Positions 11,819 to 61,569 are shown, numbered from the stretch's first letter. The stretch: 64,000 nucleotides of DNA from Paraspadella gotoi (GCA_051294375.1 CM119266.1:23056350-23120349); one strand, 5' to 3'. The notes: generated by a model from the letters alone, not told the origin. Numbers and translations: made by a program.

Positions 11819-11885
<67 letters not shown>

Positions 11886-12021: not shown

Positions 12022-12109
<88 letters not shown>

Positions 12110-12213: not shown

Positions 12214-12246
<33 letters not shown>

Positions 12247-18904: not shown

Positions 18905-19037
18905 TTGCAGGGTCCTGCTTTGTTATTATCTTGTAAGAAGGATTGAGGACTTAAACCATAGCCGGTCCAAAGTCCGGGGCAAGATTGCTTTATAATTTAT
19001 CATTTATTATAATTTTATATTGTTTGTACCAATTTCA
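18905..19037 (+). mobile_element. Diverged family A copy
   Basis: TATCTTGTAAG...GCCGGTCCAAAGTCCGGGGCAAGAT...TTGTACCAATTTCA; P4 reads CCGG/CCGG instead of CCTG/CAGG. Confidence 0.65.
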
Positions 19038-20904: not shown

Positions 20905-21017
20905 ACTTGTAAGAGTGATGGAGGCCTTAAACCACCAAAGCCTGTCCAAAGTCAGGGGAAAGATAGCTTATTTATTAAATGAATGGATAATTTTTATATT
21001 GGTTGCACCAATTTCAT
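20905..21017 (+). mobile_element. 5'-truncated family A copy with intact twister core
   Basis: Core 20907-20958 is identical to the 29.4-kb copy; the P5 stem is degraded. Confidence 0.75.
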
Positions 21018-23429: not shown

Positions 23430-23520
<91 letters not shown>

Positions 23521-25878
23521 AGAGAGAGAGAGAGAGAGAGAGATTGAAACAAAGGCATGTAAAAGAACGCTTCGACGAGCTGGTGCGGGGCATACCTTGG
23601 TCCAACCGTTCCTCAGATTGCGACACGTCTCGTAGTAAGCAAAGTATCCCGTAACGTCCACGTATTCGCCTACGAGATGAGGAGGCCGTAAAAGTGAACA
23701 AGAAAAGAACTCAAGGTAAGTTCTCCCCACCCGCAGGTCCGCTGCCGAATCCCGTAGTCGGGTCGTTGATCCCGTGCTGGTTCGGATCGATGAGGTAGAA
23801 CCCACGTCCGTAGGTCCCCATCCCGATGGCCAGACGTTCCTTGGGAAAACCGCGGGACACGAACCTGATTTTAAAAGAGAAAGGAGGTGAGAAAGGCGTC
23901 TTAGATATTAGAAATCTTAGATATATCTTATATATATCTTATATAATATATATACATAGATGTAATCGTTACCAATTGGCAGCGTGCTCCACATTCATTA
24001 TCCTTTTGTTCCCAGTGTCCGCAGCGTGGGGATGCAGAGCCACGTGGATTCCTGGTACAAGAAAATCTTCGATTTTATGTCACGGACTTTTCTTACCAAA
24101 TTTTAATAAAGATTGTTAATGATTATGTATTTTTATTATTGGTTTTCAAGCCTTTATGACTTTTTTATGGCTTTTTTATAAATCCCTTTGTACTTCAAAT
24201 TCAATTCCTGATCTTTCATTCCCTTCTTTTAAATCTTTAATAACTGTTTCCACCCAATCAAATCCCCAGCCTTACCGGTGGTCGGCTCCCACACCAGCAT
24301 GTCGTAAGTCATGAGCATCAAGTAGTCCAGCGTCTTATTCAGCCCCGGGACGTCGTAGGCGGGTTCGGCGATGTACTCGACGGCGGATGTGGCGGCTGTG
24401 AGGAGAAGGCGCTCCTTGTGGTCGGGGCAATCCTCTTTCATGAAGACGTCGCGGATTCGCTGATGATTAAGGATGTGTAAGAGTGTGTCAGTGAGAAAGA
24501 TCGAGAGACTTACCTACGAATGACCTCACCTGCAGACAAGGAATGAACCTTTTCTTGTCTTCTGCAACCGAGCCGCGTGGCAGATATCCCGGAAACTCCC
24601 AGTCCATGTCGAGACCTAAAAATAATTGGAAGTTTACAATCAAAGGTTACAAAAAAAGTTAACAATCAATTTTTAAAACATATATTTTATCTTTATTTTA
24701 TCATTTAAGATATGAGTATAAAATAGTAATAAATACGTTTTTTTTTTTAAATTAATTTGTCATTAATATTAAGTAGATAAAATTACTTATATGACTCACC
24801 ATCGAATCCGTGCTGTCGCAGAAAAGTGACCGTCGTTTTGGCAAAATGATCAGTGTTCTCGGGATATTTGCACAAGTTTGTGAAGTTGATATTTTCGTGT
24901 TCCCAACCGCCGAGAGAGATGAGCGTTTTCAGCTTCGGGTTCGTCTTCTTGTGATCCTGAAGAAAAAGAGAAAAGTTTATGAAGTTAAACGGTTATATAA
25001 TAGGTCAGATGGAACCATTTCGAACAGAGATCGGGTTTTTTATTCTTGGATTTTATTTTTGGAGAAGTCTACTTGACTACATCAGACTAATATATGACAT
25101 GACATATATAACATATGATGGGTGATATCTATTAGAAAACTAGGACAGATAGTAATCTAACCTTGTGTTGTATAGATGCTCCCTCTATTTCCAGAAGATA
25201 ACACTGACTTCCTCTTCCCAAATTGAATTATTAGATAAATATAACATTTTTAAGAAAGAAAGAAATATATATTTGATTAAATAATATAGATTAAAAACTA
25301 AATCCTTCATAAAATATAAAAATAGAAAATAGTGAAACAAGTAATTTACAAATTTTCATATATGTCTTCACCTGCAGCACTTCGTAGTATCCCTTGTAGT
25401 CATTGTGAGAGAGTTCGATAGACGGCTCGAAAGGCGCCAACTCAAAGTGTTCGTTCATATCCACGAACGCGTACATGATGTGCGTGCAGAGACGCGGGTC
25501 GATGTCCGCGGGTCCGAACTTACCGATCCCGTGACGGTGACGGGCCAGCGTCGCGAAGTAACACACCATCATCAGATCTGGCGTAGAGAAGATTATTGAG
25601 TTGATTGCAAGAGATAGCAAGTTTGAAGGTGTGAAAATATTCTTAAAACTGTAGAAGACGAAAACACAATGACAAAAAATGTTCAAGATTCCAAATGTAC
25701 TCACCTTTCTTTTCCGTCATCTGAGTAGTTTGAAAAAAAAAAATCAGAAGATTTGTTTTATTTCAATTCGAAATAGGTACAATGTAATTGTTGCCAATAG
25801 TTAAGTTCACGTTACCTTGCTAGGAGCTCCAGTGACGAGACCCAGCACCGTGGCCAACAAAACGATTTTTAGCAACAT
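22614..25878 (-). CDS. Secreted GH18 chitinase with C-terminal chitin-binding type-2 (CBM14) domain, ~476 aa, 12 coding exons
   Basis: Phase-consistent GT-AG exons: 25878-25816, 25720-25705, 25577-25372, 24956-24800, 24615-24530, 24459-24276, 24051-23973, 23864-23731, 23669-23596, 23415-23259, 22981-22863, 22769-22614. Signal peptide MLLKIVLLATVLGLVTG; motifs LCTHIMYAF, KTLISLGGW, intact catalytic FDGLDMDWEFP (DxxDxDxE), MTYD, YGRGF, WVGFDD, GGMIWSMDLDDF; Pro-rich linker; six-Cys CBM14. Confidence 0.95.
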
Positions 25879-27859: not shown

Positions 27860-29379
27860 CTGAGGGAGGAGGGGAAGAGGACGAGATAAACCGGGAAATA
27901 AAGCAAAAATAATCATATAAAGATCAGTTAATTAATAAATAGTTAATTTAAATATAAAAAGATAGTTTGTTTTTGTTGTTTTTTTTAGATTTTATTTCTG
28001 TCGTCGTTTCAGAGATTAAAAAAAACAAAAAAACGAACAAATCGTTTTTTAAAAAAAATCTCTTCGACTCAGTGAATTGTCGTTTTACTAAAGTTTATGT
28101 AGTTTTTTTTTTTAACTTTAGAAAGATTTCAGTTTTGTATTTTAAAACAAACGAAAAGTTGTCGAACGAGTGACGGGTCTTCGGGCTCGGAGAAAGTCTT
28201 CGACTAAATCAAAACTGGCAGGAAAGTCAATCGAGAGACTTACTTTTTCGAGGAATGTAGGGTCTGTCTCTTTTTTCCAGCGACGCAGAAAAAATAAACA
28301 AGTCTCCGGGATTTCCCTGGGATTTTCTTTCGCGAGTGGAATGGAAGGAGAAGTGAATTCGGGAGCGAAGAATCGAAAGTCTGTTGCCGAAGAATTCGAT
28401 CTCCGCTTCTGGGGTCAAAACTCTTTTTCGCCGGGTTTACACGACAGATAACGAGCGATCCCGGAATTTTTGGGGAGGCGGAGAGAACTCCGGGGGCGGG
28501 CGAGGGGGGGCACCACCGGACGGGAAATTTATAAGCAATTCGTTTCGAATTTAATTTGAAATTATAAATTTTTAAAAACGTCAGTAGTAATGATATGAAG
28601 CAAATTTTACTAAACACTAATTATATCTACAGTTACATTTTATATATAAATAATTCTTCCGTTTCGTGTTTCGATTTTTAGAACTTTAGTGCCGTCATTC
28701 GCCGCCGCGGTCCCACATGATCGATCCACTCCCGCATGCTTCTCTTAAAGCTTCGTTATTGTTTTAATTCCCGACTCACGCCCTGTTAAAAGTCGAAAAC
28801 ATAATTTACGTGATTCTGGTCGTCGTCGTCGTCGCAGCCCGGTCATGTCGATCTCGATTTAATGTGAAACCAAACGCATTAATGTTATTAATATGTGGCT
28901 TTTTATAACAGATATTTACTGAAGCCAAATTTATTAACTTCTCGGAAGTATCGGATACTGTATACAAGCTATTTTCTATTTCTGATTAATAAAAAAAAAA
29001 GAAGATTATAAAGCGAGGAAATATTATTAATATCATTTATTTGTTATTAATATTTTATAAAATGAGATTGGTTACCGAGAAATGTTATCACTGATTTGGC
29101 CTTTTGATGGCGAAGTTTTAAAATCAACAGTGGTAATCTTTGTATAACAACTTTGTATAACATAGTCAGGCGCAAGATAGCTTAGTAAGAGAACTTAGGA
29201 GTATGTTTGGATTCCACGACCTATTTACAATTTTTAATAATCGTAAGAAAACCTTTATCTTAAAGATCTATACAATGAAAAATACTGTTCTTCAGAAACT
29301 TGTTCTGTTTTTTACAACATAAGAATTAATTAATTAATTTTATTTAATTGTTTTTGTTTCTCTCTATTTTATTATATTT

Positions 29380-29580
29380 ATGAAATTGGTACAACCAATA
29401 TAAAAATTATCCATTCATTTTATAAATAGGCTATCTTGCCCCTGACTTTGGACAGGCTTTGGTGGTTTAAGGCCTCCATCACTCTTACAAGATAATGACA
29501 TAGCAGGTCCCTGCAAGCTTTCAATCAAGACTCTCAGTCTCGTTTATTCACTCCCAGAGTACCTGTCTTCCCTATCAATA
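29380..29580 (-). mobile_element. ~200-nt dispersed short retroposon (family A), most complete copy
   Basis: Related copies at ~730-912 (-), 10718-10889 (+), 13052-13224 (+), 18905-19037 (+), 20905-21017 (+), 29657-29704 (+) and 34736-34802 (+). All share the 3' end ...TATATTGGTTGTACCAATTTCAT; 5' ends vary. Confidence 0.8.
29432..29494 (-). ncRNA. Type-P5 twister-like ribozyme in family A
   Basis: TATCTTG-TAA-GAGT-GA-TGG-AGGCCT-TAA-ACC-AC-CAAAG-CCTG-T-CCA-AA-GT-CAGG-GG-CAAGATA: P5 7 bp, T1 CCA/TGG, T2 AC/GT, P4 CCTG/CAGG. Confidence 0.7.
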
Positions 29581-30713
29581 TATACCTATATTAGTATGTT
29601 TGTTTGTTGATGATTGAACTGAATCAACCTAGTTGTATTCGAATAAAATCGCATATATTAAATGAATGGAGGGTTACTTTTTATATTGGTTGTACCAATT
29701 TCATGTAGTAAACCACTGAATTAAATAGGAATTAAAGTAATTTAGAAAGGTACAACCACAAAAATTTGTTTCACTTTGGCGAGCGCGAACCAACCATAAT
29801 AAAACGAGATATAAAATAAAACGATTACCGCATTATTTATGAGCCTGTGAAGCAACGATATCAGCTGATTTGACCCTATTTTTTCAGTCCTTATATATAT
29901 ATTTTTATATATTATATATTTATTATTCGATCGAGTCTTCCCCTGATGCCGTAACATCACCACCCCCTCAAACCTCCCGCATTCGCGAAACTTGTAAATT
30001 TCCGAGTCTTCAAAAAAAAAAAAAAAAACAAGAAAAACAGAAAACAATCACTGATTTTGAAAACGTTTTCCAGCCAGAGTCGAGGAATGATTTTTTTCAG
30101 ATGTTTTAACATTTATAACTAGTATTACTGACAAAGTTTATCCATATGGAGCGTTTGATAAAAGCAAAATGAATAGTAAACACGGTGTCTGTTTTTGTCA
30201 GTATCATTTATAGGGTGATAAATTCAACTCATACGTAGTTAAACTGAACGCCCTCGAGTCGAAAACGCTTATAAACAAAAATATACACATTTGACGTAGA
30301 TATATAGACTTTTTTTCCATAACGCCTCACGAAAAAAACGCTCGAATCCGAGCGGTTTAAAAGGAAAGAAAAATCGATCAAGATGCTTAGGGTTCAATTA
30401 TACGAAAAAAAAGTCATGTGTCGCAAAATTAATCGTGTTAAGCTTCAAAACCTCTCACGAGTCCAAAAAACACACAGATTCTTTGAACTGACCTACTTTC
30501 GCAAACAAACCTTATATTTCAATTAATATCCGAGTTAAAACTTTCTTGCGCTCTCGATTTAGTTATTTAGCTAAACGCGGACAGATGAAGATTGAAAATT
30601 TTACCATTCGATAAGATTATTAATTATACGCAGGGGCGCCGAAATAACCTTTTTTTAAAAAAAATTTTAAAAGTCTAACGATTCGGCTATTTTCGTATAT
30701 ACGTAAATCGATC

Positions 30714-33668
30714 ATGTGTTTTACCGACGCCCGTTTTTGGGGCGTCATCGTCCTCTCGACGATCTTGGCGATCCCGACGTCTTCAACCGAGTCATCTCAC
30801 TCTCCCGGCGTCGTCAGCGTCATACTTCCGAATTCCGGCGCCGAAGTTTTGGGTCGCGAAATTCTCGTCAACGGCGGTGTGGACGTCGCCTGGCGATTCA
30901 GGGGCGTCCCTTACGCCAAGCCGCCTCTCGGAGAACTGAGATTTCAGCCGCCAGAACCACTGGATCCGCCAGAAGATGGGGTTAGTTGCTTTGAAATTAA
31001 AAAAAAAAAAAATTAAATATTGTGCGTAAACGAACGCCAACATTTTGTTCGATGTACATAATTTAAAAATTAAGCTATTGTATTATTTTCTCTCTTTTCG
31101 TTGCTAAGTGAATATTAGGAAATGTTTATTGAGTGCCAATACAACGATAATGAAAAAAATAATAATAAAAAATCGTTGTATTGGCACTCAATAAACATTT
31201 CCTAAAAATTAAGCTTAAATTTATTTAAACAGAAACCAATCGATGCATCCACTGACCAACCGCGCGCCTGTCATGGAATGGTGATGGATCGTCGCTTCGG
31301 CATGACGGACGAATTGGAATTGGGCGCCAATCGGCAGGCGGTCGCGGATTCAATGTCGGAAGATTGTCTCTATCTCAACGTGTGGACGACGCCGTTGAAC
31401 AAGGTTCATATTAATACAAATAATTGAATACATTTTTGAATGCAGATTAAGGTTGGCATATGAAAAGAAATGACTACGCTTCTTCAGACCGCGCCACTCC
31501 GCCCGGTCCTCGTTCAGATTCACGGCGGCGGATTCTTCGCCGGCGCCGCCGATTATTCGGCCTACGACGGCGCCGTTCTCACTACGCGCGCCGATGTCGT
31601 CGTCGTCGTCCCCAATTACAGGTTTGGAGTTTTCGGTTTCCTGACGCTGGGCACCGATGACATGCCTGGCAACGCCGGGCTGTGGGACGTTGTAGTGTCT
31701 CTCAAATGGATCCGGGATAATATCCAAGGTGAGGTTGAACACTTAGTTCGTTTCCTCGATAATTCGCTTCTTTAGATAACTCTCGCCCCCCTCTCGCCAG
31801 CTTTCGGCGGTGATCCGTCTCGAGTTACGCTCTTGGGGGAGAGTGCCGGCGGCACCGTCGTCGACGCACTTCTGGAATCCCCGAGGGCGCGCCCGCTTTT
31901 TGCCCGCGCCATAATTTCAAGCGGCGTCGCGAAGCACAACGTCTACGGAATTGCGGCGCAGGAGGAGATCGTGAGGAACTCTATCATGTTTTTGCGTTCT
32001 CTGCGATTTAAAACGAGACGAAATCACGAAGGGGCTCTTGAGAAAGATCTGGACGACGAAAGCCGAGTGGACGAGAAGGAAGAGGAGATCGAAGTTGACG
32101 AAGACATCGAAGATCTCGAAGAGGACGTCGCTGAGGATAAAGATGAAGACAAACAACCGGACGACTCAGCCGGAGACGATCTCGAAGAAAAATCGAAAGA
32201 CGATCCCGAAAACAAAGTTCCAATTTTCGACGAGGGGTCCTCTGACAAATCTAAGTTACGGGCCTTTATTCTCAGACAACTGTTCTTAGCCAAAAAGCTG
32301 AAAGCCACGGTCCTCGACAAAATACAGTGGATCCGTTTAACCCAATATCCCGGCTCCCTGTACCCCTTCCGCCCGATGGTCGACGAGCGCGTATTGATGG
32401 AGGATTCGTACCTCGCGCCCGGCGCCGACGGGAACGTCGACGTTGACGTCATCCTCGGGTGGAACGATCAAGAGTTCGCCAATTACGCCATCACTAGTTT
32501 ACTCGCCGATGTCGGGCTCAACGCTAAAGATAAGGACGCCGTATTGTGGAATGTTACGCGAGTGGCCGAATACTGGAAGAACCACGTCAACGAATCCAGG
32601 TACGAGGGCGATACTATTCGCTAATGATAAATTCTGCTGTGGGTTATTCCGATTAAAACTCAAATAGCGTAATTATCACGGAAATTATTTATTTTTCATC
32701 CAAATTCAGCAATTTAAACCTCAAAGAATTCAATGGGACCGCGAGGTTCGAGACTGTTTACAGGTTGTCCGAGAACAGGTTGGTCTTTTTGACTTATGAT
32801 TACTGATTACATTGATTAGTGCCCACTTGAGGTCGCTGATCGATGACGGCTATGACTTTCCTTTCTTCCCGCGCTTCAGCTCAATCGTCAGCCAGTTTTA
32901 CACCGCCATCAAGCGAGAGACCGACTCTTGGTTCGTCTGCCCGATGATCGCCCGCGCCCGCCGGCTCTCGGAGGTTCCGGGCGTCAACGTCTACGCTTAC
33001 GAGATGCGTCACAACCTGGAGGCGCTCCCGGACTGGATGGGCGCGCATCACGGCATGCAACTGCCACTCGTATTTGGGCGTATGCTTGATCCCGATAGGA
33101 TGTACAGGTGAGCGATATAAGTTAACTCGAAACGCAAAACTTGCATAAAAGAAATTGTAGCTAGGGGCCGAGGGGAATTAGTAAAAAATGGTTTGGTCAG
33201 TGAAAAGATTTATTTTTAATTTGACAAAACTTTTTTATAACGACTCTCGTCAGAACCGCCGGGACTTCGACCTCTCCTCCCGGGGCGATCCCATTCTCAG
33301 ACACGGACGTCTCCGTCAGCGTCGACTTCATTAAGGAATTAGCTTCTTTCGTGCGTGACGGACGCCCAACTCTCACTTGGCCCCAATTCACTGCGGGTGA
33401 TGAACGTGTTCGCATCTTCGGTCAGCGACGTTCCGAGGAAGAATTTGACCTAAACGAAAAAGACGAGTCGAAAGGCGACGAAAAGTGGGAGCGGCTTTCT
33501 CCGTGGCAGAGACAACGTTGCGACTTTGTGGGTGACAGTTACCTGGAGGAATCCACGCAGGGTTCGGCGATCAAGTCGTCCCTGTCGTGGCCGCTTCTGG
33601 TCTTTTCCACTATTGCGATTATGCTCACAATGACGATGATGATTTCCAAAATTATCTCTAGGCCTTGA
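30714..33668 (+). CDS. Type-B carboxylesterase / cholinesterase-like protein, ~729 aa, signal peptide and probable GPI-anchor signal, 7 exons
   Basis: Phase-consistent exons 30714-30980, 31233-31403, 31488-31728, 31801-32599, 32710-32778, 32880-33107, 33254-33668. Motifs [60 protein letters not shown] (catalytic Ser), GWNDQE (acid), WMGAHHG (His); C-terminal GSA-spacer-hydrophobic tail. Confidence 0.95.
31115..31205. repeat. Perfect 34-bp inverted repeat in intron 1 of the esterase
   Basis: TTAGGAAATGTTTATTGAGTGCCAATACAACGAT, 23-nt A-rich loop, exact reverse complement. Confidence 0.9.
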
Positions 33669-34360: not shown

Positions 34361-35799
34361 AAGGCATAGCCTCAGTTCTTAATTTGTTTTTCGAATAAAC
34401 GATAGGGGCTTTACCGTCGTTTGTTGAAAGAGATAAAGGGTAAATTGTACATACCGTATATACTTGCTCCCTATCTAACTATTGATTACTGAATATTAAA
34501 AAATGAAAAATGTTAGTAACCTTTCCCGTTAAAATGTTTTCACATAATGTCTGACGCAATTATTTTCAGAAAATTTCTCCTTAAAAAACTTTATTGCTTT
34601 TGCTTCCTATTTTCTCTTTGTACCTAAAATTATCGTAATCATTTAACACCCTGATGCTTGCGAACAGAGAAATGCGGTAAGTGGCAAGTCCATGAAAATC
34701 GTCAAAAAATTGGCAATAGTAGTGGGCAGTGACATAAGTCGGGGGCAAGATAGCTTATTTATTAAATGAATAGTCAATTCTTATATAGGTTGTACCAGTT
34801 TCCTAAAATTAACCCTAATTCTTAATTTTGACATTAACATGAAAAAAAAAATGACAATCCTTAACTTGCAGAGTTCCCTCGCGGAAACCGACTGAAATCG
34901 CCCCAAAACAAAAGGTTCTCAAAAAGATAGGGAAACTTATAAAATTTAATTGCATGGACGGCAACAGAATGATCTCCGTGATTGGAAGATTATTTCATTT
35001 CTTTTTGGTTTTATCTCTTTACTGCGTCTTCTTGGTGGTTAATACTAAGTAAGTGCAAGAATTTGTGAACAAAATGCTACTGAGCATTAACTTGTCGGAT
35101 TCCGAGTATATAGATGACTGTCGATATGTTTGGTTGATCAGTTTCATTATTAAATGAAAAAAAAATTATAATTTTTTTATCCAGATAAAAGGTGTGCTAC
35201 AACAACTTTTTTATATTACAGGGGTAGGACCCTACATCGCGACAAAATTTTAAAAATCATTACTCTTAAAATCTGAATAAATATTCGTATAGTCTTCTCT
35301 CTTAGCTTTTAGACGATTTATTAATTGTTTTGATATTATGCTTTTTAGTTTTAACAATTTTTATCTATAATTTTATTTATAAATATTAAAAAAATAATTA
35401 TTAATGCTTCGAGCCATTTAAAAAAATTTGGTCCATTGAAAGTTTTCTTAGAAATGTATAATGTTTCATTTGGGAAGGTTCCCAAATAAAACTTCTGACC
35501 CACACTAATGACATAGATTTGCCCTAGCTAAATTGTATATTCACGGATTTTCTGGTCGGTTATTTTAGATTAAATTTTTCCCTTGAAAAGCCAAAGGTTT
35601 TTTTATATATTATTATACCGGCTGACGTAGAATGTTGGCAATCAAGTTTAATGTAAATCGGACCATGAATATAAAAAATAACAAATAACTTTAAAAAATC
35701 CGATGGAATAATCTTGCCATAAAAATTTTTTTACCGAATCTGACTTCCACTCTTTTACTTTTACCCTAATCATTTATTTTTAAAATAATATAATTAAAT

Positions 35800-37721: not shown

Positions 37722-38318
37722 TAAGGCGTAGTAAATTTTTAAATTTAACTTTAATTAAAATTCTAAAAGTGAGGACACGAACAACATTATACTAATGAAA
37801 ATTTATGTAATAAAAAATTTATAATTTTACAATTTACGCAGTAGGCCATATTTATAGTAGTACTAAACCAATAAATGTTAAAATTCAAAACAGTTTTTTT
37901 CTAAGATTTTTTTGCAGATTTGGATTCGTCATAAAAAGTTGATAAAAGAAATATAACTCTTTTGATAAATTCCTTCATTAAGTGGTCAAAAATTAGAAAA
38001 AGCTATTTTTAACTGAAAATAAACTTTTATATATAAATCTAGTTTTTTAATTTTTAACCACTTAATGAAAAAAATTTTAAAAATGATTTATATTTTCTTT
38101 TATCAACTTTGACAAGGAATTCAAATCTGCAATCAAAATTAAGAAAAGCCTATTTTAAAATTTTTCGATTTTATAAGGATAGTACTATATATTAAAATAT
38201 AGCCTACTGTGAAAATTAAAAAACAAAATGAATTTTTTTTACAAATTAATGTTCACTGATGGCCTGTTGTTCATAATTAACTTTTAGAATTTTCGTATGT
38301 AACTTTCACTACGCCTTA
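37722..38318. mobile_element. ~600-bp imperfect palindromic MITE; a second copy at ~58634-59130 abuts the Penelope element
   Basis: TAAGGCGTAGT...ACTACGCCTTA termini, arms mirror around ~38030; 58634-59130 matches this element in reverse orientation. Confidence 0.75.
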
Positions 38319-38760
38319 CTAAACAATTAATCCATCGTTCAAATTATCATTCAAATTATCGTCGTCGTATTTGTCGATCCTGACAGAGAGAGCCAGAGAG
38401 AGCGAGAGAGATTCGCTGCTCCGTCATATGGCAAGGGGGCATCAATATTTGAAAAGGCCGGTAGATGTAGTAAAACTGAAGTAGAAAAGGCAAGAAATTC
38501 TGTACAATTACTTGGAATAGAAATAGTGATAGTAGTCTGGCGGTAAGACCCCGCCGGGGGCTCGCTTTTTTTAAAGTATTGTCATGTTAGGATACCCTAG
38601 TATTTTTTTTAAATACCCTAGTATTTTTTTTTTTAATTACTTTGACAAATCGATAGTTTTTAAGTATAAAGTAAAGCGGTAAGACCCCGCCGGGGGCGCG
38701 CACAAAGTTTTATTTGGCGGTAAGAACCCGAGAAGGGCCCGCAAAATAGGATCGCCCTAA

Positions 38761-40633: not shown

Positions 40634-43553
40634 TAATAAAATTAATCGTTGTTGAAACTAATTTCAAACTCTTCTAATTGTCATTAAACAACAAAACGAG
40701 AGGATTATATCACAATAGAATTAAATAAAAAAAAGGAACATATCTAAATTTATAAAATTTTAAAAGTAAAAAATCCTTTTGATTATTATAAAAAAACCGA
40801 AGTGAACAAAAATCTAAATTAAAAAAATCTTAAAAGTATAAGGATCTCGCCAAGGTATAGTATCAAAGAAAATTAATAAAAAAGTACTATAATCTAATTT
40901 GCATATTGCAGTAAATCTTAATGAAGCAGAAATTCAAACAAAAAATATTTGAATCGATATGAAACCAAAAAAGTGGACACACATTTCAACTTCGTCACTG
41001 CCTCAAAAATGGAACTTGATAACTAGATACATTGTTTGGTAGATTAACCATAAACCGGTAAAATAAAGATAATTTTTTTTTATTTTTGAGAGAAGATTGT
41101 TGACTACTTAAGAGAAGTGGCGAGCGAGAATAGAACAGTGGTTTAACCTAGACTATAATGCGATGATAATTATTCATTGATATGAAGATAAGCATTAATT
41201 AATGTGATAATAATCATTTATTGATGCAGTTATAATCTTAATAATTGATTGATTGATTGGTGTAATAGTAATTGATTGATTGATGTAATAATAATTGATT
41301 GATTAATGTAATAATAATTGATTGATTATATAATAGTAATTGATTGATGCAGTGATAACCAAATATTGATGCAATGATAACCAAATATTGATGCGATAAT
41401 AACCAAATATTGACGTGATGATAACCAATAATTGATGCGATGATAACCAAATATTGATGCAATGATAGTCATTCATTGATGCGATGATAGGTCAGAGAAG
41501 AGAAGAGGACACAGATGTAGAGAAACAGAGAGAAAAACAGAGAGAGCTCGGACAGCACAGCTGGAAGCGCCGCTTTACCAGTCACTGCAGAGCCTGAACT
41601 GCGTTTTTTAAATGGTTCAGAAAAAGCAGCGCCTAACAAAAATTAAAAAATCTTAAAAGCAATAGGGATCGAGCCGCTTTCATGGTCTAACCAAATATGG
41701 ATGCCATAGAATAACCAATATTGCGCGATGATAACCAATAACTTTGATTGCCAGTGCCATACAATATGAGCATGTAATTCATGATTTGCGATGATAGTCA
41801 TTTCTGATAATGAGTAGATTAATCATTCATATAAAGATACGAATGATTAAATACCAATAACATACCCGATGATAGTCAATTCACTGACGCCCGATGAATC
41901 ATTTCATCGTAAAATAAAACAAACAAAGGGCGTGTATGAGTGAAAGAGAGAGAAGAGAGGAGAGAGAGATGCCCTGGACAGTTTTCCGCAAGACGTTAGG
42001 CGTTATTATAATCGATTTTTAGGGAAAAACATCCACGAAAATCTCGGATGTAAATTCTTGGGATTTTGTTATTGAGAAAAAAGCGCGGATAAATTGGCCG
42101 ATAATTCAAAAGTTTAGAAGGAAAAAAAAAAGAGAGAGACTAGGAGGTAGAGACATATGAGGAGAGAGAAGAGAGAGGAAGATGAGGAAAAAAGAAAGCC
42201 AATATTAAGAAATTTTTGTAATGAAAAATTATACCCTATTAACAATATATAAGGAAGAATACTCAGTTACGACTATGATATTTGAATCCCATAATTAATA
42301 ATAATATACGCGTTTATCGCAGGTTATTTAGTCAGTGTCCTCCTTGACATGTTGTACTCGTTTCTCGCAACGGCCACGCAATCCATGTAAAGAGAAAAAA
42401 GGCGCGAGAATACATGGTGATAATAAAAGTTTTTTAGCAAGGAAAAAAAATAGACTCAGAGAGAGACAGAGAGAGAGCAGAATAAAAGAAAAACCGTATT
42501 TCTTTCCCAATTATATCAGCGGTTATCCCGTTGCCTCGCAACCGGCGGCTAGCGTGATCTCGGTCAAGTTGATCCGTATTTTACACGTTAACCGGTCAAG
42601 TTAAGTTGATTCTTCACATGTTTCTGCAAAAATTCACGAAATCTCAGATATAAATTTGGGATTTTGTATTGAAAAAAAAAATAAGCGCGATAAATGGGCG
42701 ATTAATAAAAGTTTTTTAGAAGGAAAAAAATAATCCAGAAATTTTTTCCAAAAAAACGAACGATGCACGCAGAGATTTCGTTAAAAGGAGAAAGAGGACA
42801 GAAAAGAGAGAGAGGAGAGACGGCAGGAACGAGAGATGAGAGGAGAGAAAGAAGCCTGAACAGACGCCTGCATAGCCGGAACTCGCTTTACTCGTCGCAC
42901 AATTAATAAATATAGCTTTACTTATTATTACTAATTTTTGATATTGCATACCCCAGTACTAATAATCTATATTAGATTATTGCATGCGAGTAATTATAAT
43001 GAAGTGGAAATTCTCAAACAAAAATAAAATACTTGAATCGATATGAAACAAGAAAATGACACACATTTCAAATACATCACTGCCTCCACTAATGGAACTT
43101 GATAACTAGATTCATTGTTTAGTAGTTTTAGTTAAACTATAAACCGGCAACAATAGCAGTAAAAAATATGATCCGGCATATAGACCATACAATCCGCATA
43201 TTCAAATTGTGAAAAAAAATTTAAGGTTTTTCGCTCAACAAACATTGGACAGAGTTATGAAAAAGATTCCATCTTGGCAATGTAAATCCTTTTATTAAAA
43301 TGCTATTTGCTTATCTATATTCATTTTTTTTCTTTAATACAACATCATGTTAGGAGACGGAGAGAAAATGGATGAGAGAAGCGTAAAATATTCTGACGTC
43401 ACTGAATATTATCTTCACTTTTTTCTAAAATAAAATCCACGAAAAATCTCGGATGTAAATTTTGGGATAATGGTGATATATAAAAGTTTTTTAGAAGGAA
43501 AAAAATAATCAGAATTTTTCAAAAACGAACGATCACGCAAAAAAATCGTACAC

Positions 43554-43584: not shown

Positions 43585-44775
43585 GTTCACAGAGAGGGAC
43601 ACAGAGAGAGGACAGACAGAGAGAAACAAGGTGACAGCTGCTGGAAGGCCCGCTGTACAGTCATTGCAGAGACTGAACTCGTTTTCTCTAAAAAAATTTT
43701 TTTTTTTTTTTTTTTTTATTAATACCAAAAAGACAGGTATTTTGACAAACATCAAAAACAGTATCAGTTGTAAAAAACTAAAAGCAGTAAACAAGTAAAC
43801 AACTATTAAAATTCACAGAAAAAAAGACACTAACGTTAATGACTCATAATAAAATGTTATGAACTAATTCATAAGAAACTATAATATACACGTTCAAGAA
43901 CTTCAAATTAAATTTTAAAATCAAAAAGAAAAAAAAAAAAAAAGAAAAATATATACTATGTAATTTAAGAAATAAAGAAAGGCAAATATGTTACAATTGT
44001 TTACATTGAATTTTTCCAATTTTTTCCAATCGTCAGCTTGTAAAAGATTTTATTTTATTTGTATTAATTAAAATAGTTCTCATTAAAGATAATTGAGTTC
44101 CATTTTTATTATATTTTTAAAAAAAATTTTTGAATTTCATCTTCAATATTATATACTGCAATATGTAAATTAGATTAAAGCATTTCTATATACTAATTGG
44201 ATGTTATAATGAGTACTTTAATCTCATTTGCATATTGCAGTAAATCATAATGAAGTGGAAATTCAAACAAAAAATACCTTAAATCCACAATGTAATATGA
44301 AAATATCACAGCTATTTCAAGATGAAAAGCCATATCTAAATTTTTAACTTACTATGATCCACACTTTTGTAAAAACTTTATCATAATTCATAATAATTTT
44401 ATTTTAAAAAAAACGGTAAGTTACAGCCAAACCTATAAAAGCTGAGTAGTTTTTATATAAAAACAGCGCTGACGCCGACGACGACGACGACAACTACGTC
44501 ACAAAGAATTTTTTTTTTATTAATACCAAAAACAGTATTGACATAATCATAAACAGTAATAGTGTAAAGACTGGAAAACTAAACTATGTATGAAATTCAA
44601 TAAAAAACAAAGAAAGAAGCAAACCTAAAACATTATAGGACCTGAACCGGCTTCGCCGGTCATGGCTCGATAAAAAATATATATATATAATTTAAAGAAA
44701 TAAAAGAAAGGCAAAAAAATGTCATGAAGAGACCGTAATTATTGTTATGTGTTAGCGACAGAACCGTTCAATATG

Positions 44776-44850
44776 AGCAGTCCCTGAGCTTCGGATCAGG
44801 CTGTAACACCATGTTAAGGCGGGTTAAGCTCCCCGTCCCTCTTAACTGCT
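44776..44850 (-). ncRNA. Type-P5 (circularly permuted) twister ribozyme in the 3' LTR
   Basis: Minus strand AGCAGT-TAA-GAGG-GA-CGG-GGAGCT-TAA-CCC-GC-[P3 TAACA/TGTTA]-CCTGA-T-CCG-AA-GC-TCAGG-G-ACTGCT: P5, P2, P3, P4, T1 (CCG/CGG) and T2 (GC/GC) all form, and the conserved UAA, GA and U-NNN-AA-GC residues are present. Confidence 0.75.
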
Positions 44851-45188
44851 AGGGCGCCACCGGCTAGAACCCCGGACCTTTGGGTTGGGAGGCAAATGAC
44901 TTGCCTCCAGCACCAATGGCCGCTGATGAACGGTTGGTGGATTTTAGTCACCACATACATCCCCCCCTCCTGTAGGGAGAAGTCTGTTGCGTCACTTCAG
45001 TGAATTGTTGTTATGGAAAGTGCGTCACCAAGTTGAGGCATGTCGCCTGATTTATTGTTGGTGGAAAAAGCATCGCCAGGTTAAGGCATGTCGCTGAAAG
45101 TGTTGTTGCTGTGTGTTCGGAAGTCGGGCTCACCAATGAAGAGAAAGTAATTATTGTTATGTGTTAGCCTGACAGAACGTTCAATATG

Positions 45189-45268
45189 AGCAGTCCCTGA
45201 GCTCTCGCGATCAGGCACTGTAACACCATGTTACAGGCGGGCTAAGCGCCCTGTCCCTCTTAACTGCT
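45189..45268 (-). ncRNA. Second twister copy in the 5' LTR (substitutions/indels, possibly sequencing errors)
   Basis: AGCAGT-TAA-GAGG-GA-CAG-GGCGCT-TAG-CCC-GC-CTGTAACA(TGG)TGTTACAG-TG-CCTGA-TCGCGAGAGC-TCAGG-G-ACTGCT; perfect 8-bp P3 but altered T1 and L4. Confidence 0.6.
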
Positions 45269-45859
45269 AGGCAGCCACCGGGCTAGTACCCCGGACCTTT
45301 GGGTTGGGAGGCGAATGACTTGCCTCCAGCACCAATTGCCGATGATGAATGGTTGGTGGATTTTATTCCACCATAGTTACAATTGTTTACAATTGGAAAT
45401 TGTTACAATTTTTTTCAATCATAGCTTGTAAAAGATTTTATTTTTGTTTGTTATAAAATTAAGATATAGCTTCACATTAAAAAGGTCTTTTAATTTCAAA
45501 TGTTTTTTATTGATTCAAAGATTTTTTTATGAATTTTATCTTCAATATATTTTACTGCAATATGTAAATTAGATTAAAGCATTTCTATATACTAATTTGG
45601 ATATTATAAGGAGTACTATAATCTCATTTGCATATTGCAGTAAATTATAATGAACTGAAAATTGAAATAAAAACTATGTGAATCCAAATGTAATATAAAA
45701 ATTTTAAAGCGATTTTAATATGAGAAGCCATATCTAAATTTTTAACTTACTATGATCTTACACTTTTATAAAACTTCATTGTAATTCATAATAATTTTTA
45801 TTTAAAAAAAAATAAGGCCCAGCCAAAACTATAAAAGTGTAGTAGTTTTTATATAAACA

Positions 45860-47103
45860 AATTTGAGCAAACAATGTCGGATCTGCCTATGAAAATTAAT
45901 TAATTAATTAATCGATTAATTAATTAATTGATTAATTAATTTTAATATTTAATAATTAATTATAAATTTATATACAGCTTATCATCATCGATGTCCTTAA
46001 AATAAAGTAAATGTGACTTATATTTTTTCCATTTAAACTCATTTCCACTGGCACAATTCCGTCAAAACTTTATATCTAGCTTCTTCACAAACTTTCCTTC
46101 CCGCTCACAAAATTTCATCTCAATCTATTATGGGTTAAAATAAGTAAATAGAGTCAAGTAAATGTGACTCATATTTTTTTCATTTAAACTCATTTCCACT
46201 CGTACCGAAACTTTATATCAAGCTTCGTCACACATTTTCCTACCCACACACAAAATTTTAACACAATCTATCTATGGTTAAAATAAGTAAAAAGATTTTA
46301 ATAAATGCAACTTATGTTTTTTCCATTTAAACTCATATCCACTCACACGATTCCGTCGAAACTTTATATACAGCTTCATCACACATGTTCCTACCCATAC
46401 ACAAAATTTCGTTTCGAACCAACCAGCCAATCACGAGTTATTGGGGCTTTTTGCTAAGTTGGGACGGATGGACAGATTGATTGACTGATTAATGATTAAT
46501 TAGTGATTAATTAATTGATTAATTAACTGATTAATTATTTGCTTTATTTATACATCCTGCATTTACATTTAATATAAAAGGGAAAAAAATCATAATCAAT
46601 TAGTGAAATACATTTTTTGTTTTTTTCCATTTAAACTCATTTCCACTCAAACAATTCCATTAAAACTTGGTTTCCTGTTCAATCACACACTTTCCTACTC
46701 ACATACTAAATTCCAGGTCAATCGCCCCATCCACTCATGAGCAATTGGTGTTCAAATAGTGAATTATATTTTTTTGTTTTTTCTATTTAAACTCATTTCC
46801 ACTCGGACGATTCCATCGAATCTTTATATCCAGCTCAATCACACACTTCCCTACCCACACACAAAATTTCATTCAAATCCATTCAACCAATCACGAGTAA
46901 TTGGTGTTTTTTGCTAAGGTGGGACGGACGGACGGACGGACAGACGGACGAACGGACATCATTTTTTTTGCATAATTTATCATAATTCGATGTTCTGACA
47001 TGATATAAGTTAGTGCCCGACAATATTGAGGGGGCGGACCGACGGACCGACAAAGTGAATTATAGAGTCGGGATCTGCTGATAAGCAGATCCGGCTAAAA
47101 AAA
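45860..47103 (-). mobile_element. Helentron-associated / pearl-like non-autonomous element
   Basis: Subterminal inverted repeat CGGATCTGC/GCAGATCCG, T-rich end, (GTCC)n microsatellite, ~130-150-bp internal core repeats (TTCCATTTAAACTCATTTCCACT...), terminal small hairpin. Confidence 0.75.
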
Positions 47104-47774
47104 GCGTGACGCCGACGACAACGATGACGACGACGACTACGTCACAAAGAAGCGTCGCCTTCGCATTATTTTTGATTTCTAAGATGTTATTTATTATTTT
47201 TTTTTTCTTATGAACAAATTGAACCTATTAAAATCTCGGATATAATAAATTATATTATAATATATTATAGTGCCTAATAATGAATATTTTTTTAAAAAAT
47301 GCTCTATCGACGAAAAGCGAAGAGCGTATGAAATTAAATTATTAATTTACATTAACAATTTCAAAGAAATGATTTTTTTAAAAATTTTAACCGAATGTGA
47401 GGTCCTTCCACTTTATGTAGTGCGTGTTAGCTCAAACGTGTTACCACTTACCAGAATAATAATAAAAACCTTTACAATTTCTTAAAACAAATTTAAGGAC
47501 ACGGCCAGAAGGAATACCTTTCTTCAATATTTTTACACAAGTTTCATTCAGCTACGAAAAAAATAATTACAACGTCCAAAAATTACGGCAAAACAACGTC
47601 ACGGATTGGACGGAAAATCAATTGATGGTATTCGCTAATCTTTGTATGATTTGAAATTTAGAATAAGCTATGTTCATTTATTTTTCGAAGTCAATACATA
47701 TACAATAATTCTTACTTTTAGTAGAAGTCAAAATTAGTTTTAAACAAATAAAAAAAAGCAAACTCATTTCTCTT

Positions 47775-48555
47775 TTTTTTTAGCCGGATCTGCTCACAGC
47801 AGATTCCAGCTCTATAATTCACTTTGTCGGTCCGTCGGTCCACCCCCCCAATCTTGTCGGGCATTCACTTATATCATGTTAGAACATAGAATTATGATAA
47901 ATTATGCAAAAAAAATGTATGTTTGTCTGTCTTTCCGTCTGTCTTTTCGTCTGTCTGTCTGTCCATCCATCCCACCTTAGCAAAAAACACCAATTACTCG
48001 TGATTTGATGGATGGATTGGAATGAAATTTTATGTATGGGTAGGAAAGTGTGTGATTGAGCTGGAAATCAAGTTTTGATGGAATCGTCCGAGTGGAAATG
48101 AGTTAAAATGGAAAAAAAAATATTTCACTATTTGAATTCCAATTACTCATGAGTGAATGGGGCGATTGACTTCAAATTTTGTATGTGGGTAGGAAAGTGT
48201 GTGATTGAGCAGGAATTAAAGTTTCAATGGAATCGTCCAAGTGGAAATGAGTTAAAATGGAAAAAACAAACAATCTATTTTACTATTTGATTATGCTTTT
48301 TTTAATTTTTATATTAAATGTAAATTCAAGCTGCAATAATTAATTATTAATAAATAAGTAATTAATTACTTATTATTTGTAATTAATTAATTTTGTGGTC
48401 GAGATTGTTGTTTTGTGATTGAGAGTCGAGACAAAGTGGAAAACGATTTTGACATGAATAAAAAAAATTAATATTAATTAATTAATTAATTAATTATCTG
48501 ATCAGCTGCTTACCGCTAATGATCGTAGGCAGACCCGGCATTGTTTGCTCAAACT
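47775..48555 (+). mobile_element. Helentron-associated / pearl-like element, second copy (fewer core repeats)
   Basis: TTTTTAGCCGGATCTGCT...GTAGGCAGACCCGGCATTGTTTGCTCAAA; same modules as 45860-47103. Confidence 0.75.
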
Positions 48556-49129
48556 TTTTCAAAAACAGATTGAATTTCCCTATCATTTTCCATCCGTGAT
48601 TCCTTACGGAGTTTATTTTCAATGCTGCGGAATGCTCCGATTACTCATCAGCTGCTTCGTCGGTAAGAGCAGAAACAAATCTTGAAATTACCCTACCATT
48701 TAGTACTATTAGTATGCCTTTCACAAACCCCTTCTAGCAGTTATGATTTATCATATGTCTGGGCATTTAAATTTGAACTTGTATTGAGACTGAGTAGTGA
48801 CAATCAGTTTGTGTTTCCTATCCTGTTTCAAACACTTGCGCACTTCTTGTGTTATCCGCCATGCAATATCCCATATCCAAAATAGCCTATTCGATGCTTA
48901 AGGGCTTTTAAGTCAGATTTATATCTTATTTAAGTAAGTTTTATGAGAAATTTGAATCTGCTGTCAGAATTTTTTCAATATACTAGTAGTACTACATATA
49001 GTAGTTTATACGTTAAGGCAGAAGAAGGTAAAAACTAAGAGTTCTGTAATGTAAATAACGTTAGAGATTCCCTGTAGGATAACGAAATTTTTACCAAATT
49101 TAAGATTTTAAGTTTAGAGCAGAAAAATT

Positions 49130-49320
49130 TGATTTTTACAACGAATTGCATTTATTAAAGATGCAGACATGTTTGGAACACTTGTTTTGTTCATCATCAG
49201 TAAATTTTCACATTTTGGAATACAAAATTTTGGCAAGTCAAAAATTGAGAGAGAGAGAAAGAGAGAGTGAATCAGTGAGATAAAGCTTCCAACAAAGGAT
49301 CGAGAGAAAGTGAACAGTCT
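49130..49320 (-). mobile_element. Penelope-type pseudo-LTR with degenerate hammerhead
   Basis: Minus strand CTGATGA-T-GAAC...GTTC-CAAA-CATGTC (49200-49166) preceded by the (CT)n / TTGTTGGAA context seen in the other copies. Confidence 0.5.
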
Positions 49321-49703
49321 GTCTCTAAGTCATTCACCATCGAAAAAGAAAGGAAAACTAACAAGATTTTAAGTATAGTTAATAAGGCTGGCCAAAATTG
49401 AACGCTTTTAGTTCTCTCAAAAAAATTCCTTTTTTCCTTCTATTACTAAATCGATTTTCAATGCAACTTTTCGAATTAGTTCATTGGGTTGTTGCACTGA
49501 AGCTTTTAAATATTTATTAATATATAACAAATAAATTTTTTTTTACAAAATTTCTAATTTTTTAATTTTTTATCAGTTAAAATAAGTAAAAACTAAAAAC
49601 AATATGGAATGATGATGATTATAAGAATTTTTAAGGGTTTTCCCTTATTTAACCCACTTTTCATCGAAATATTGAAAAAAGCATTATACTTTATGTAGAC
49701 GAA

Positions 49704-50792
49704 TTTTTAGTCGGATCTGCTTATCAGCAGATCCCGACCTATATACTCACTTTGTCGGTCCGTTCGGTCCGCCCCCTCAATATTGTCGGGCACACACTTA
49801 TATCATGTCAACATCGAATTATGATAAATTATGCAAAAAAATGATGTCCGTCCGTTCCGTCCGTCCGTCCGTCCGTCTCCGTCCGTCCGTCCGTCCGTCC
49901 GTCCGTCCGTCCGTCCGTCCGTCCGTCTCGTCCGTCGTCGTCCGTCCGTCATCCGTCCGTCCACCTTAGCAAAAAACACAATTACTCGTAATTGGATGGA
50001 TGGATTTAAATGAAATTTGTGTGAGGATAGGTAAATGTGTGATTGAGCTGGATATGAAGTTTCGATGGAATCGTCCGAGTGGAAATGAGTTTAAATGGAA
50101 AAAACAAAAAAAAATATATTCACTATTTGAACACCAATGTGCTCATGAGTGGATGGGCTGATTGACCTGGAATTTTGTATGTGGGTAGGAAAGTGTGTGA
50201 TTGAACAGGAAATCAAGTTTCGATGGAATAGTTTGAGTGGAAATGAATTTAAATGGAAAAAAAAACAAAAAACCTGTTTTACTAATTGATTATGCTTATT
50301 TTTCCTTTTATATTAAATGTATATGCAGGATGTATTTAATAAATCAAATAATTAATCAGTTAATTAATCAATTAGTAAATAAATTAATCAATAATTAATT
50401 AATAATTAGTCAATCAATCGTCATCCGTCCCATCTAAGCAAAAAGCTCAAATAACTCGTGATTGGCTGGTGATTGGAATTAAATTTGTGTGTGAGTAGGA
50501 AAGTGTGTGATAAAGCTGGATATAAAGTTTCGATGGAATCGTGTGAGTGGAAATTAGTTTAAATGGAAAAACATAAGTCGAATTTACTAAAATCTTTTAC
50601 TTATTTACCAATAAATATCTAATTAATCATAATTGGATGATAGATTGAGTTGAAATTTGTGTGTGGGTAGGAAAAATGTGTGACAAAGCTTGATATAAAG
50701 TTTCAGTGGAAACGTACCAGTGGAAATGAGTTTATAATGAAAAAAATATAGTCCATTTACTTGAATCTTTTTATTTATTTAACCCATGATAG
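49704..50792 (+). mobile_element. Helentron-associated / pearl-like element, third copy (cut by gap); a 3'-end fragment also at ~56255-56432
   Basis: TTTTTAGTCGGATCTGCTTATCAGCAGATCC, long (GTCC)n, core repeats. Confidence 0.75.
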
Positions 50793-58800: not shown

Positions 58801-59128
58801 AGGCTTTTCTTAATTTTGATTGCTGATTTGAATTCCTCGTCAAAAGTTGATAAAAGAAAATATAAATTATTTTTAAAAATTCTTTCATTAAGTGGGTAAA
58901 AAATTACAAAAACTATATTTAATATATAAAAAGTTAATTTTCAGCTTAAAATATAGCTTTTTCTAATTTTTGACCCACTTAATGAAGAGTTTTTTAAAAA
59001 AGAGTTATATTTCTTTTTATCAACTTTTTATGACAAATCCAAATTGCAAAAAAATCTTAGAAAAAACTGTTTTGAAATTTTAACATTTATTGGATTAGTA
59101 CTAGTATAAATATGGCCTACTGCGTAAA

Positions 59129-61130
59129 TTGTATTTATTGGCTTCTTTTCGATCTCTGCATGGGGCAGAGTCAGTACTCTTCTGGTATCGGAAAGCAGAC
59201 GATACCATCCTGGCCGTGAAAAGGGATCTGGTTGATACCCTTCTGACCCATTTAAACAACATCGAAACGAGTATCAAGTGGACATGTGAAAAGGAGGAGA
59301 ATGGCAAAATTCCAATGCTCGATGTGCTTATTAGGCGCAAAGAGGGCGGCTCATTGGAATTCTCTGTGTATCGCAAACAAACTCATACTGACCAATACAT
59401 TCCCTTTGATTCGCATGCTCCCTTGTCCCACAAACTCGCCACGGTCAGGTCCCTTACCAGAAGAGCCCTACTACTGATTCCTCGACCCCGAGCTCCAGGC
59501 CGCCGAGCTTGAGCATGTCAAAAGAGCCTTGGGCGCTCAATGGTACCTCTTGTGGGCTTTCGAGAGGCTAGTTCCGGTCTGAACCAGCGTGAGGACAGTG
59601 GCCACCAGGGGCTGTCCAAGTACTGCTGCGCAAGTTCACTCCGCCCAGGGAGAGAACGAGGTCTTTGCTGACTGAAGGACCAACGCGCCTCACAGCGCAA
59701 TGGAATATAGCAGAAGCGCCTCAAGAACTGTGGGTACCTGCCCTCCCTCACACAGGGATCACTGAGCTTTGGTGCAGGTGCTAGCAAAGCAGGGGATCTC
59801 CACTTTCTAGTAGGCCCGTGCTCCTTACGGTGAGCAATTGGTGAAACCGAAAGATAAAATCCCCAGACCGCATATTCAGTAGTCTCTAATTGTAGGTATC
59901 GTGCTGGAGTGCTTATACAACCTTGCCATTAGAGTCTATATCTGTGCTCGAACGGAATCTCTGTAAATGGAAATTCGGTTTAAAACTAATAAAGCCGTAT
60001 CGTGACACAGAAGGGTCACTTTTTATCGGCTATTGCGAGCATTTGGCATCTTCTGGCCATCTGTTAGAGAGTTCCGACTGCTGTGCTGTCCATGACCAAA
60101 TTGGTTCTTCAGGAGTGAGAGAGGCGATTTACATCAAAGCCCTCGAAGCCCTCTTTGAATCGTGTGGAGGACGATTCGACCTCCCTCCAAGCTATGATTC
60201 GCTTCATCAAACTGATGGTGGAACCCACGCCACCTCAGCCGACGTGACTCCCCTGTCCCACTACAACGGGGTCAGGGGGGACTCTCAGCAGGCAATGGTA
60301 CCTGATGCTCACCCAAGCCTGCAGAAACTTGGACGACTCTCTCGATACCGAGCGCGCCCAACGACGGCCTGCAGGAGGAGGGGAGGAATCTGTATCTCCT
60401 GTACAAAACAGCCACAGGCAATCGCCCGCCTCCCGTCAGACGTGAGAGCGGAGGGCATTCGCGTTATCAGGTCAGAGACATCGCAGTGGCACTGGGCATT
60501 TTTTCAGGTTGGGTCATTTACAGATCCCAGCTAACTACTCCCCACACAATTACTCTCGTACAACCATGACAGCCTATGAACCGAAATTCAATTCAGTAAT
60601 ATCCCTCATGTTGCCCGGTGGAGGGGAGGGACCCAGCTCCTTTGAGCTCTTTCTTACTTATTTTTTCCTTACCATCTATTATTCTTAACTATCCCTCATT
60701 AAACTATCCTTTTCCATTTCATTTTCAATATTTCAATATTCACATTTTCAAAAATGCCAAACAGGCTTAATTTAATTTATTTAAATCTTGTATGTATAGT
60801 TTATTAATACTATTATCTTGTTGTTACATGCCTATGTTATACTATATTTTCTTCTTCTCTTATCTTGTCTCTCTCTCCCTTCTCTTCCCGTGTTTCACCA
60901 ATTTCAATTCACTCTCCTTTTCTCCATTCCTTATCTTTCACCTGTCCTCACATCTGACCACTTATCTTTACTAAATTCTTTTGGTTGGAACTCTCCCTCA
61001 TCTCTCTCTCTCTCTTCTCTCTCTCTTCTCAATGTTTGTGAAATAATTATTTGGTGATTCAGATGCTGATGAAGGCTTGAGTGTGAGCCGAAACATTGTC
61101 CAAAGTTATAAAACTTTTTGTTGTCCACGA
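59129..61130 (+). mobile_element. 5'-truncated, frameshifted Penelope-like retroelement (RT C-terminus, GIY-YIG remnant, 3' pseudo-LTR)
   Basis: WYRKADDT...HLNN...IKWTCEKEENGKIPMLDVLI...VYRKQTHTDQYIPFDSHAPLSHK...RSLTRRA; frameshifted ELEHVKRAL; later EHLASSGH...REAIYIKALE...GGRFDLP (GIY-YIG C-terminal half); hammerhead at 61066. Confidence 0.9.
61062..61103 (+). ncRNA. Minimal hammerhead in the 3' pseudo-LTR of the Penelope-like element
   Basis: CTGATGA-A-GGCTT(GAGTGT)GAGCC-GAAA-CATTGTC; helix I is weak; lies downstream of the RT/GIY-YIG remnant. Confidence 0.7.
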
Positions 61131-61569
61131 AAATTTCGTTTTATTAAGTTAAATTTTAAATCTTTACTATTATTATAAGTTTACAAAAGTGTGGCGGATC
61201 ATAGTAAAGTTAAAAATTTAGAAATGGTTCTCATCTTGAATAGCTTTGAATTTTTTTATTAATTTGGATTTAAGTTATTTTTTGTTGAATTTCCACTTCA
61301 TTATTATTTTACTGCAATATCAAAATTGGATTATAGGACTCAATAAATATCCAAATTAGTAATAGAAATGCTTTCAATCTTAATTTACATATTGCAGTAC
61401 TATATATAGAAGATGAATTCAAAATTTTTTTAAAAATTTTTAATAAAATGGGGGAACTCAAAGGATTTTTTTTATGAGAAGCTATATCTTAATTTAATAC
61501 AATAAAAAAAAAATCTTTTACAGCTGCGATTAGGAAAATTGGAAAAATTTCCAATTTGTAAACCATCTG

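Follow-up and report, generated by a model that had tools for sequence, protein, structure and literature searches.

A 651-bp element in 64 kb of Paraspadella gotoi DNA (the 64,000-nucleotide stretch analysed here, called the window) belongs to a high-copy, protein-free family of miniature LTR retrotransposons whose LTRs carry a well-supported type-P5 twister ribozyme pattern. We put at roughly one in two the probability that this family works like a plant LTR retrozyme, by way of a circular RNA. The element is a TRIM that likely rides a CsRn1-like element, and it is likely a twister-based animal counterpart of the plant LTR retrozymes.

Self-BLAST and motif matches recovered the layout given in the original prediction, namely a miniature LTR element with LTRs, PBS, PPT, a 4-bp TSD and an empty paralogous site (Table 1). 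The order on the minus strand is 5′ LTR (45375–45137), PBS, internal region, PPT and 3′ LTR (44957–44725). The LTRs are direct repeats with 90.4% identity over 239 columns, and self-BLAST finds no third copy in the window; an LTR-against-LTR alignment of 241 columns contains 14 mismatches and 11 gap columns. PBS and PPT each match once in the 64-kb window. The two TSD copies, GTCA and GTTA, agree in three of four letters, and the unoccupied paralogue has a single GTTA. Two LTRs, a length below 1 kb, the lack of a coding region, PBS and PPT, a TSD and dispersed copies place the element among TRIMs. Within the internal region, a 48-nt imperfect tandem duplication occupies 45014–45109, where contig joints reveal copies missing 61–73 bases. 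The AT-rich repeat family that hosts the element (43945–44461, 45376–45857, 61169–61566 and 40870–40972) has long internal inverted repeats and is MITE-like; the sequencing runs contain many empty copies of it.

Table 1. Positions of the element, its ribozyme motifs and the repeats compared with it, numbered along the window
Feature	Position	Strand	Remarks
Whole miniature LTR element (TRIM)	44725–45375	−	651 bp; non-coding; termini TA..CA
5′ LTR	45137–45375	−	239 bp
3′ LTR	44725–44957	−	about 233 bp
PBS	45123–45135	−	TGGTGAGCCCGAC; 1 base past the LTR's CA
Internal region	44958–45136	−	179 bp; PBS, 48-nt imperfect tandem duplication, PPT; no listed ORF
PPT	44961–44971	−	AGGAGGGGGGG; 3 bases upstream of the 3′ LTR
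Left TSD copy	44721–44724	+	GTCA
Right TSD copy	45376–45379	+	GTTA
AT-rich host-repeat paralogue without insertion	43945–44461	+	empty site GTTA at 43990–43993
Variant type-P5 twister, 3′ LTR	44776–44850	−	core intact
GA of 3′ LTR twister	44837–44836	−	catalytic
T1 CGG of 3′ LTR twister	44835–44833	−	pairs with CCG in L4
P1 linker of 3′ LTR twister	44832–44827	−	6 nt
Predicted cut of 3′ LTR twister	44826/44825	−	
L4 of 3′ LTR twister	44795–44788	−	on 5-bp P4
Decayed twister, 5′ LTR	45192–45268	−	UAG; T1 1/3 pairs; 2 extra L4 bases
tRNA-like / Pol III promoter-like stretch	44853–44922	−	3′ LTR U3; TGG..GG then AGGTCnnnGGTTC, stem-closed; weak
tRNA-like stretch, 5′ LTR	45271–45341	−	B-box-like motif changed
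Second-family twister	29430–29494	−	core intact; T1 UGG/CCA, T2 AC/GU, P1 AGGCCU; comparison only, outside the element
Second-family twister	20903–20965	+	core intact; comparison only, outside the element
Second-family copies	726–922 (−), 10713–10890 (+), 13048–13225 (+), 18902–19040 (+), 20902–21018 (+), 29376–29585 (−)		
Second-family fragments	29653–29704, 34736–34807		

Contigs from four of nine listed sequencing runs (X1, X3, X5 and X6) were aligned to the element stretch, on which 12,539, 6,949, 2,501 and 878 contigs fell in the four runs; contig depth in these counts does not equal copy number. The family ends sharply. Contigs with unlike flanks before 44725 number 120 (X1), 118 (X3), 81 (X5) and 33 (X6), and 120 and 135 X1 contigs leave for unlike flanks exactly at the LTR ends. 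The distinct junctions in a single run exceed 100, which shows that the family is large and high-copy. Empty-site contigs that skip 655 bases (the 651 of the element and a 4-bp TSD copy) occur in all four runs. Loose contig ends combine the LTR end CATA with ATAT-like flanks; the termini are therefore TA..CA rather than TG..CA, and insertion is biased towards AT-rich targets. Joints that go back from LTR to LTR were considered as evidence of circles and dropped, genomic LTR repeats yielding identical joints.

The twister of the 3′ LTR reads, in strand order, P5, UAAGAGG, GA, CGG, a 6-nt linker, UAA, CCC, GC, P3, a 5-bp P4 around UCCGAAGC, and P5. The cut site has its UAA, GA is present, T1 forms all three of its pairs and T2 both (GC/GC), and P4, of 5 bp, bears an L4 of the form U-NNN-AA-NN. 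The order P2-GA-T1-P1-UAA-P2-T2-P4-L4, the catalytic G and A and both pseudoknots are shared with the type-P5 twister of Rfam (RF02684), whereas P1 is here a 6-nt self-complementary linker, the P2 strand has 3 nt with two direct pairs, P3 is long, P5 is closed and the score lies below threshold. The self-complementary P1 and the short P2, the features that make this a variant twister, had been overlooked in the original prediction. Its statement that each LTR folds as a twister stands for the 3′ LTR, which has every element listed, but not for the 5′ LTR, where UAA is replaced by UAG, one of three T1 pairs remains and L4 has grown to 10 nt. Because of these defects the window locus is predicted to cut once only, the 5′ LTR twister of this copy being predicted to be inactive. 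The two predicted cut sites (45244/45243 and 44826/44825) and their 418-nt spacing lie where they had been placed.

The family differs from the window copy at the very sites broken in the 5′ LTR. At 45242 and 45252, 89–100% of contig depth carries the 3′ LTR letter in each of the four runs; most family contigs are intact where the window's 5′ LTR twister is broken, and the window copy is an aged family member. Among the variant rows listed (40 of 68), the variable site inside the 3′ twister is 44811 (20–47%), in the P3 loop. Young copies of the family very probably self-cleave.

A search with the Rfam twister models, proposed as a check on the motif, gave no match in the 64-kb window at gathering score and four irrelevant matches, none of them a twister, at E ≤ 10. 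This absence, and a P1 and P2 that depart from the Rfam consensus, would fit a twister look-alike, or a relic inactive in all copies, within an ordinary TRIM. So would energy folding, which yields the twister fold for neither LTR (z −1.57 and −1.52) with a program that cannot represent pseudoknots; for the 3′ twister it predicts a competing fold in which the T1 and P2/T2 strands pair with each other. Our loosest descriptor is moreover unspecific, with 76 matches in 150 shuffled windows. We nevertheless consider a look-alike decidedly improbable. A strict descriptor that requires GA, UAA, both pseudoknots, P2 and P4, composed with the motif in view, matched the 3′ LTR only in the window, 31 of 120 control phage loci and not one of 100,000 dinucleotide-shuffled LTR sequences. 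An independent covariance model (R1), trained solely on 25 phage twisters, six of them fetched using the LTR's T1 letters, returned seven matches at E ≤ 10 when run unfiltered over 128 kb. The 3′ LTR ranked first (28.1 bits, E roughly 5e-5), copies of a second repeat family second to fourth and the 5′ LTR sixth; the printed alignment of the 3′ LTR registers on a second UAA inside P3, not on the proposed UAA. Both pseudoknots, finally, show double changes between the LTR and that second family. The type-P5 reading is supported by the shuffles, the independent phage model, the compensatory letters in the second family and the intact majority letters in four runs.

The phage control twisters were gathered by pattern; in two Rfam scans of 20 loci each, 3 and 18 loci were called Twister-P5. 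Three phage type-P5 twisters (L141, L145 and L146) have a 3-nt P2 strand and a 3-bp P2, and two of them (L141 and L146) exceed the Rfam threshold. Two phage contigs bear two type-P5 twisters each, about 2.6 kb and 4.8 kb apart (L135/L150 and L124/L136). Pattern scans for relatives of the motif found none in metagenome contigs and none in viral contigs. About 2,600 natural type-P1 twisters have been assayed, and the available part of that report (PMC11662667) describes defects in P1, P2 and P4 as tolerated and those in the pseudoknots, the catalytic bases or A2 as not tolerated; the P1 and P2 tolerance data concern type-P1 twisters, not a P1 closed by a 6-nt linker.

The second family is a repeat of about 210 bases that does not align to the LTR at E < 1 in self-BLAST. 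Six copies were tabulated, of which two have a complete core (29480, minus; 20917, plus) and four are decayed. From the LTR to the second family, T1 changes from CGG/CCG to UGG/CCA and T2 from GC/GC to AC/GU, the first P2 pair changes from C-G to A-U, P5 differs and the linker GGCGCU becomes AGGCCU. The two-family comparison thus covers both pseudoknots of the proposed fold. Covariation within five second-family copies was not above shuffles (236 of 500), which leaves a single comparison, that of the two families, as the compensatory evidence. A descriptor of exact geometry gave three matches in the window against two in 400 shuffled windows.

The presence of a related motif in another repeat of the same genome would suit a passenger twister, that is, a ribozyme-bearing short repeat captured into a TRIM/Helenus LTR and amplified without a role, as would the proposal, in the accessible part of Kojima's paper (PMC10886601), that TRIMp3 arose by SINE insertion into an LTR. 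Such a passenger is improbable. The LTR and the second family cannot be aligned (E < 1), yet both keep the core with compensatory letters, and a fast cutter in an LTR would destroy the ordinary RNA intermediate and be lost, whereas the majority letters of the family are intact.

As to its own nature, the second family has an LTR-like layout, with about 100 bases before the motif and about 50 after it, ending in TTTCA. Examined as solo LTRs, its copies have no consistent TSD, PBS or PPT; they could represent solo LTRs from a different family, or else a Penelope-type repeat or SINE-like unit. A tandem duplication of about 2.35 kb (8598–13286, 96.8% identity), possibly an assembly artefact, duplicates one of the copies. 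The window as a whole is eukaryotic and repeat-rich. It holds two intron-containing genes, for a GH18 chitinase at about 23200–25720 (minus), whose closest relatives bear a chitin-binding domain, and for a carboxylesterase at about 30648–33668 (plus). At 46005–50792 a repeat of roughly 150 bp forms arrays that run in both orientations. Broken frames at 59105–60534, with no Pfam match at E ≤ 0.01, adjoin an inverted 500-bp repeat common to 37757–38321; we take them to resemble a Penelope-type reverse transcriptase region.

The P1 linkers of the LTR and of the second family are both self-complementary, with duplex energies of −8.3 and −9.1 kcal/mol; 216 of the 4096 hexamers have this property. 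In the 3′ LTR the linker has one mismatch, at a site where 92–100% of depth carries the 5′ LTR letter. In both families complementarity extends to the two middle bases of the linker, which are unable to pair within a hairpin. Amphibian hammerheads that have a stem of one pair and a palindromic loop are described, in the part of the source available, as cleaving better as dimers (PMC7229834). By analogy, we infer that the twisters of both LTRs may form a double twister through P1. A P1 of one or two pairs acting alone is an equally open reading, and the second-family copies stand singly.

Upstream of the twister, the U3 of the 3′ LTR contains a tRNA-like stretch that is possibly, and weakly, a Pol III-like promoter. 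Its pattern, TGG..GG followed after 24 bases by the B-box-like motif, is found at one place in the window and in 2 of 100,000 shuffles; it was set post hoc, the start of the spacing having been reset from 25. A 24-base spacing between the boxes is, by the numbering we assume, that of tRNA genes. Box A lacks TRGCY. A tRNA model built from 22 phage tRNAs gave the LTR stretches 1.5 and 0.8 bits and hence no support, Rfam gave the stretch no match at E ≤ 10, and the relaxed calls of ARAGORN (-ps80), of which the window has at least 26, do not rise above background, the LTR stretch scoring 79. The minus strand has one run of at least four T, which is absent from most contigs. Helenus LTRs often contain such box words.

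In the life cycle that we propose, a transcript spanning both LTRs would cut itself in each, the LTRs being identical at insertion and an active twister therefore expected to cut both. The double cut would leave an RNA of about 418 nt without terminal redundancy, on which ordinary minus-strand transfer would therefore fail. The family has integrated many times, so the cut must suit its cycle, either through circles or through partial, 5′-only cleavage. In the first case, the ends of the unit-length RNA would be joined and the resulting circle copied by borrowed Ty3/gypsy machinery, reverse transcription from the PBS continuing round the circle and regenerating the LTR. Accessible portions of the plant work set out a circle-based retrozyme model of this kind (PMC4918200, PMC7761336), and RtcB is described as circularising animal ribozyme monomers (PMC7229834, seen in part).

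In the second case, the twister would be active as a cutter of 5′ ends, trimming read-through or Pol III RNA; the 3′ copy would often stay uncut, and a linear RNA that keeps R would undergo ordinary strand transfer with no circles. Twister variants are described as trimming the 5′ end of Perere-3 RNA in the available part of PMC8501958, a short P1 and a competing fold point to cleavage that is slow or incomplete, self-pairing of the monomer is not high, and second-family copies with the same motif occur singly. Set against these points, LTRs identical at birth should both cut unless their folding context differs, and a P1 that is self-complementary in two families suits a reaction between two copies. 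We consider this alternative possible but unlikely.

The circular reading has its own balance. Against it we count the folding of the natural 418-nt monomer, which is no better than that of shuffles (z −0.20), and the pairing of that monomer as a circle, 55% of bases compared with about 70% in described retrozymes, both values being those of an aged copy; the competing fold, the absence of an Rfam match and the failure of the tRNA model also count against it, and no autonomous partner was found. Counted for a retrozyme-like element are the layout, the family, the rank given by the phage model, the compensatory letters and the self-complementary P1.

A close parallel is with plant LTR retrozymes, described in the accessible parts of PMC4918200 and PMC7761336 as non-coding, with two LTRs that each bear a self-cleaving motif, PBS, PPT, a 4-bp TSD and Gypsy-type signals. 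On the side of the element this likeness involves a twister pattern that is intact only in the 3′ LTR of the window copy, with predicted activity. The element has a P5-variant twister where the plant elements have a type III hammerhead, and a PBS for tRNA-Trp where theirs is for tRNA-Met. Its monomer is shorter (418 nt compared with about 600–1000 nt) and less self-paired, its host is likely an animal and its circle is only predicted. The element is not a retrozyme in the strict sense, because the hammerhead of that definition is lacking; no hammerhead match was found in the window with Rfam, at gathering score or at E ≤ 10.

In layout the element is akin to Helenus/TRIMp3, a kinship that had been overlooked. 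According to the portions of Kojima 2024 (PMC10886601) available, these are TRIMs of 311–1263 bp with a 4-bp TSD and a Gypsy-type PBS, which in some wasp families is for tRNA-Trp and starts in the same way as that of the element. The 4-bp TSD and Gypsy-like PBS by which animal-type Helenus is recognized are both found here. Possibly shared as well is a tRNA-like Pol III box within the LTR; in the Helenus LTRs displayed there, this part is placed close to the 3′ end, in most cases ahead of a T-rich stretch, whereas that of the element is weak and is followed by the ribozyme. The word 'twister' is absent from the text of that paper (PMC10886601). Four twister L4 words gave one match, in an internal region, in such Helenus sequences as the available part contains, where line wraps may hide others (PMC10886601).

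The autonomous partner would likely be an element like those of the CsRn1 clade of Ty3/gypsy, for which the part of PMC2582038 available gives the PBS TGGTGA[G/C]CCCG (tRNA-Trp) and a 4-bp TSD, both shared with the element. The 5′ end of the element is one letter off the CsRn1 att TGTGGYG (Table 3 of PMC3601003, a source seen in part). Members of the clade are autonomous and 4–6 kb long, whereas the element is likely a passenger, and the ATAT-like target bias of the element has no reported equivalent for the clade in the portions of these sources seen.

Ribozymes are tied to other animal retroelements in different ways. The T-variant twisters of Perere-3 in Schistosoma mansoni (Liu et al. 2021, PMC8501958, available in part) share with the element a weak-P1 twister linked to a retrotransposon; they differ in their type-P1 order and in standing singly at the 5′ end of a non-LTR (RTE) element that is autonomous and has no LTR, PBS or PPT. 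Twister motif words gave only unrelated matches in the supplement of that paper. Animal non-LTR retrozymes, as far as the available parts of the sources describe them (PMC7229834; bioRxiv 10.64898/2026.07.22.740005), are likewise small ribozyme repeats with dimer-dependent palindromic-loop motifs and RtcB closure. Unlike the element, they are tandem repeats that carry type I hammerheads and are linked to Penelope-like elements, and they are stated to lack LTR, PBS and PPT (same sources).

In the accessible literature, LTR retrozymes are described mainly from plants and with hammerheads, and animal retrozymes are stated to be without LTR, PBS and PPT. No report of twisters in LTRs or of animal LTR retrozymes was found in the openly accessible papers searched. 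A bolder version of our reading, which we hold tentatively and somewhat against the odds, is that the family is the first LTR retrozyme of an animal and also the first retrozyme based on a twister. Its palindromic P1 would build a double twister that cuts only when both LTRs lie on one RNA and leaves a cleavage-resistant circle, perhaps from a tRNA-type Pol III promoter, and the second family in this genome would show that the twister variant is a wider class missed by Rfam. If the retrozyme-like reading is true, retrotransposition by way of a ribozyme and a circle has emerged a second time, in a different kingdom and with a different class of ribozyme, and the element would do naturally what laboratories achieve by tandem-twister circularisation. 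Eukaryotic P5 twisters would then have a function, and a variant with a 6-nt palindromic P1 and a short P2, overlooked by standard models, would be defined.
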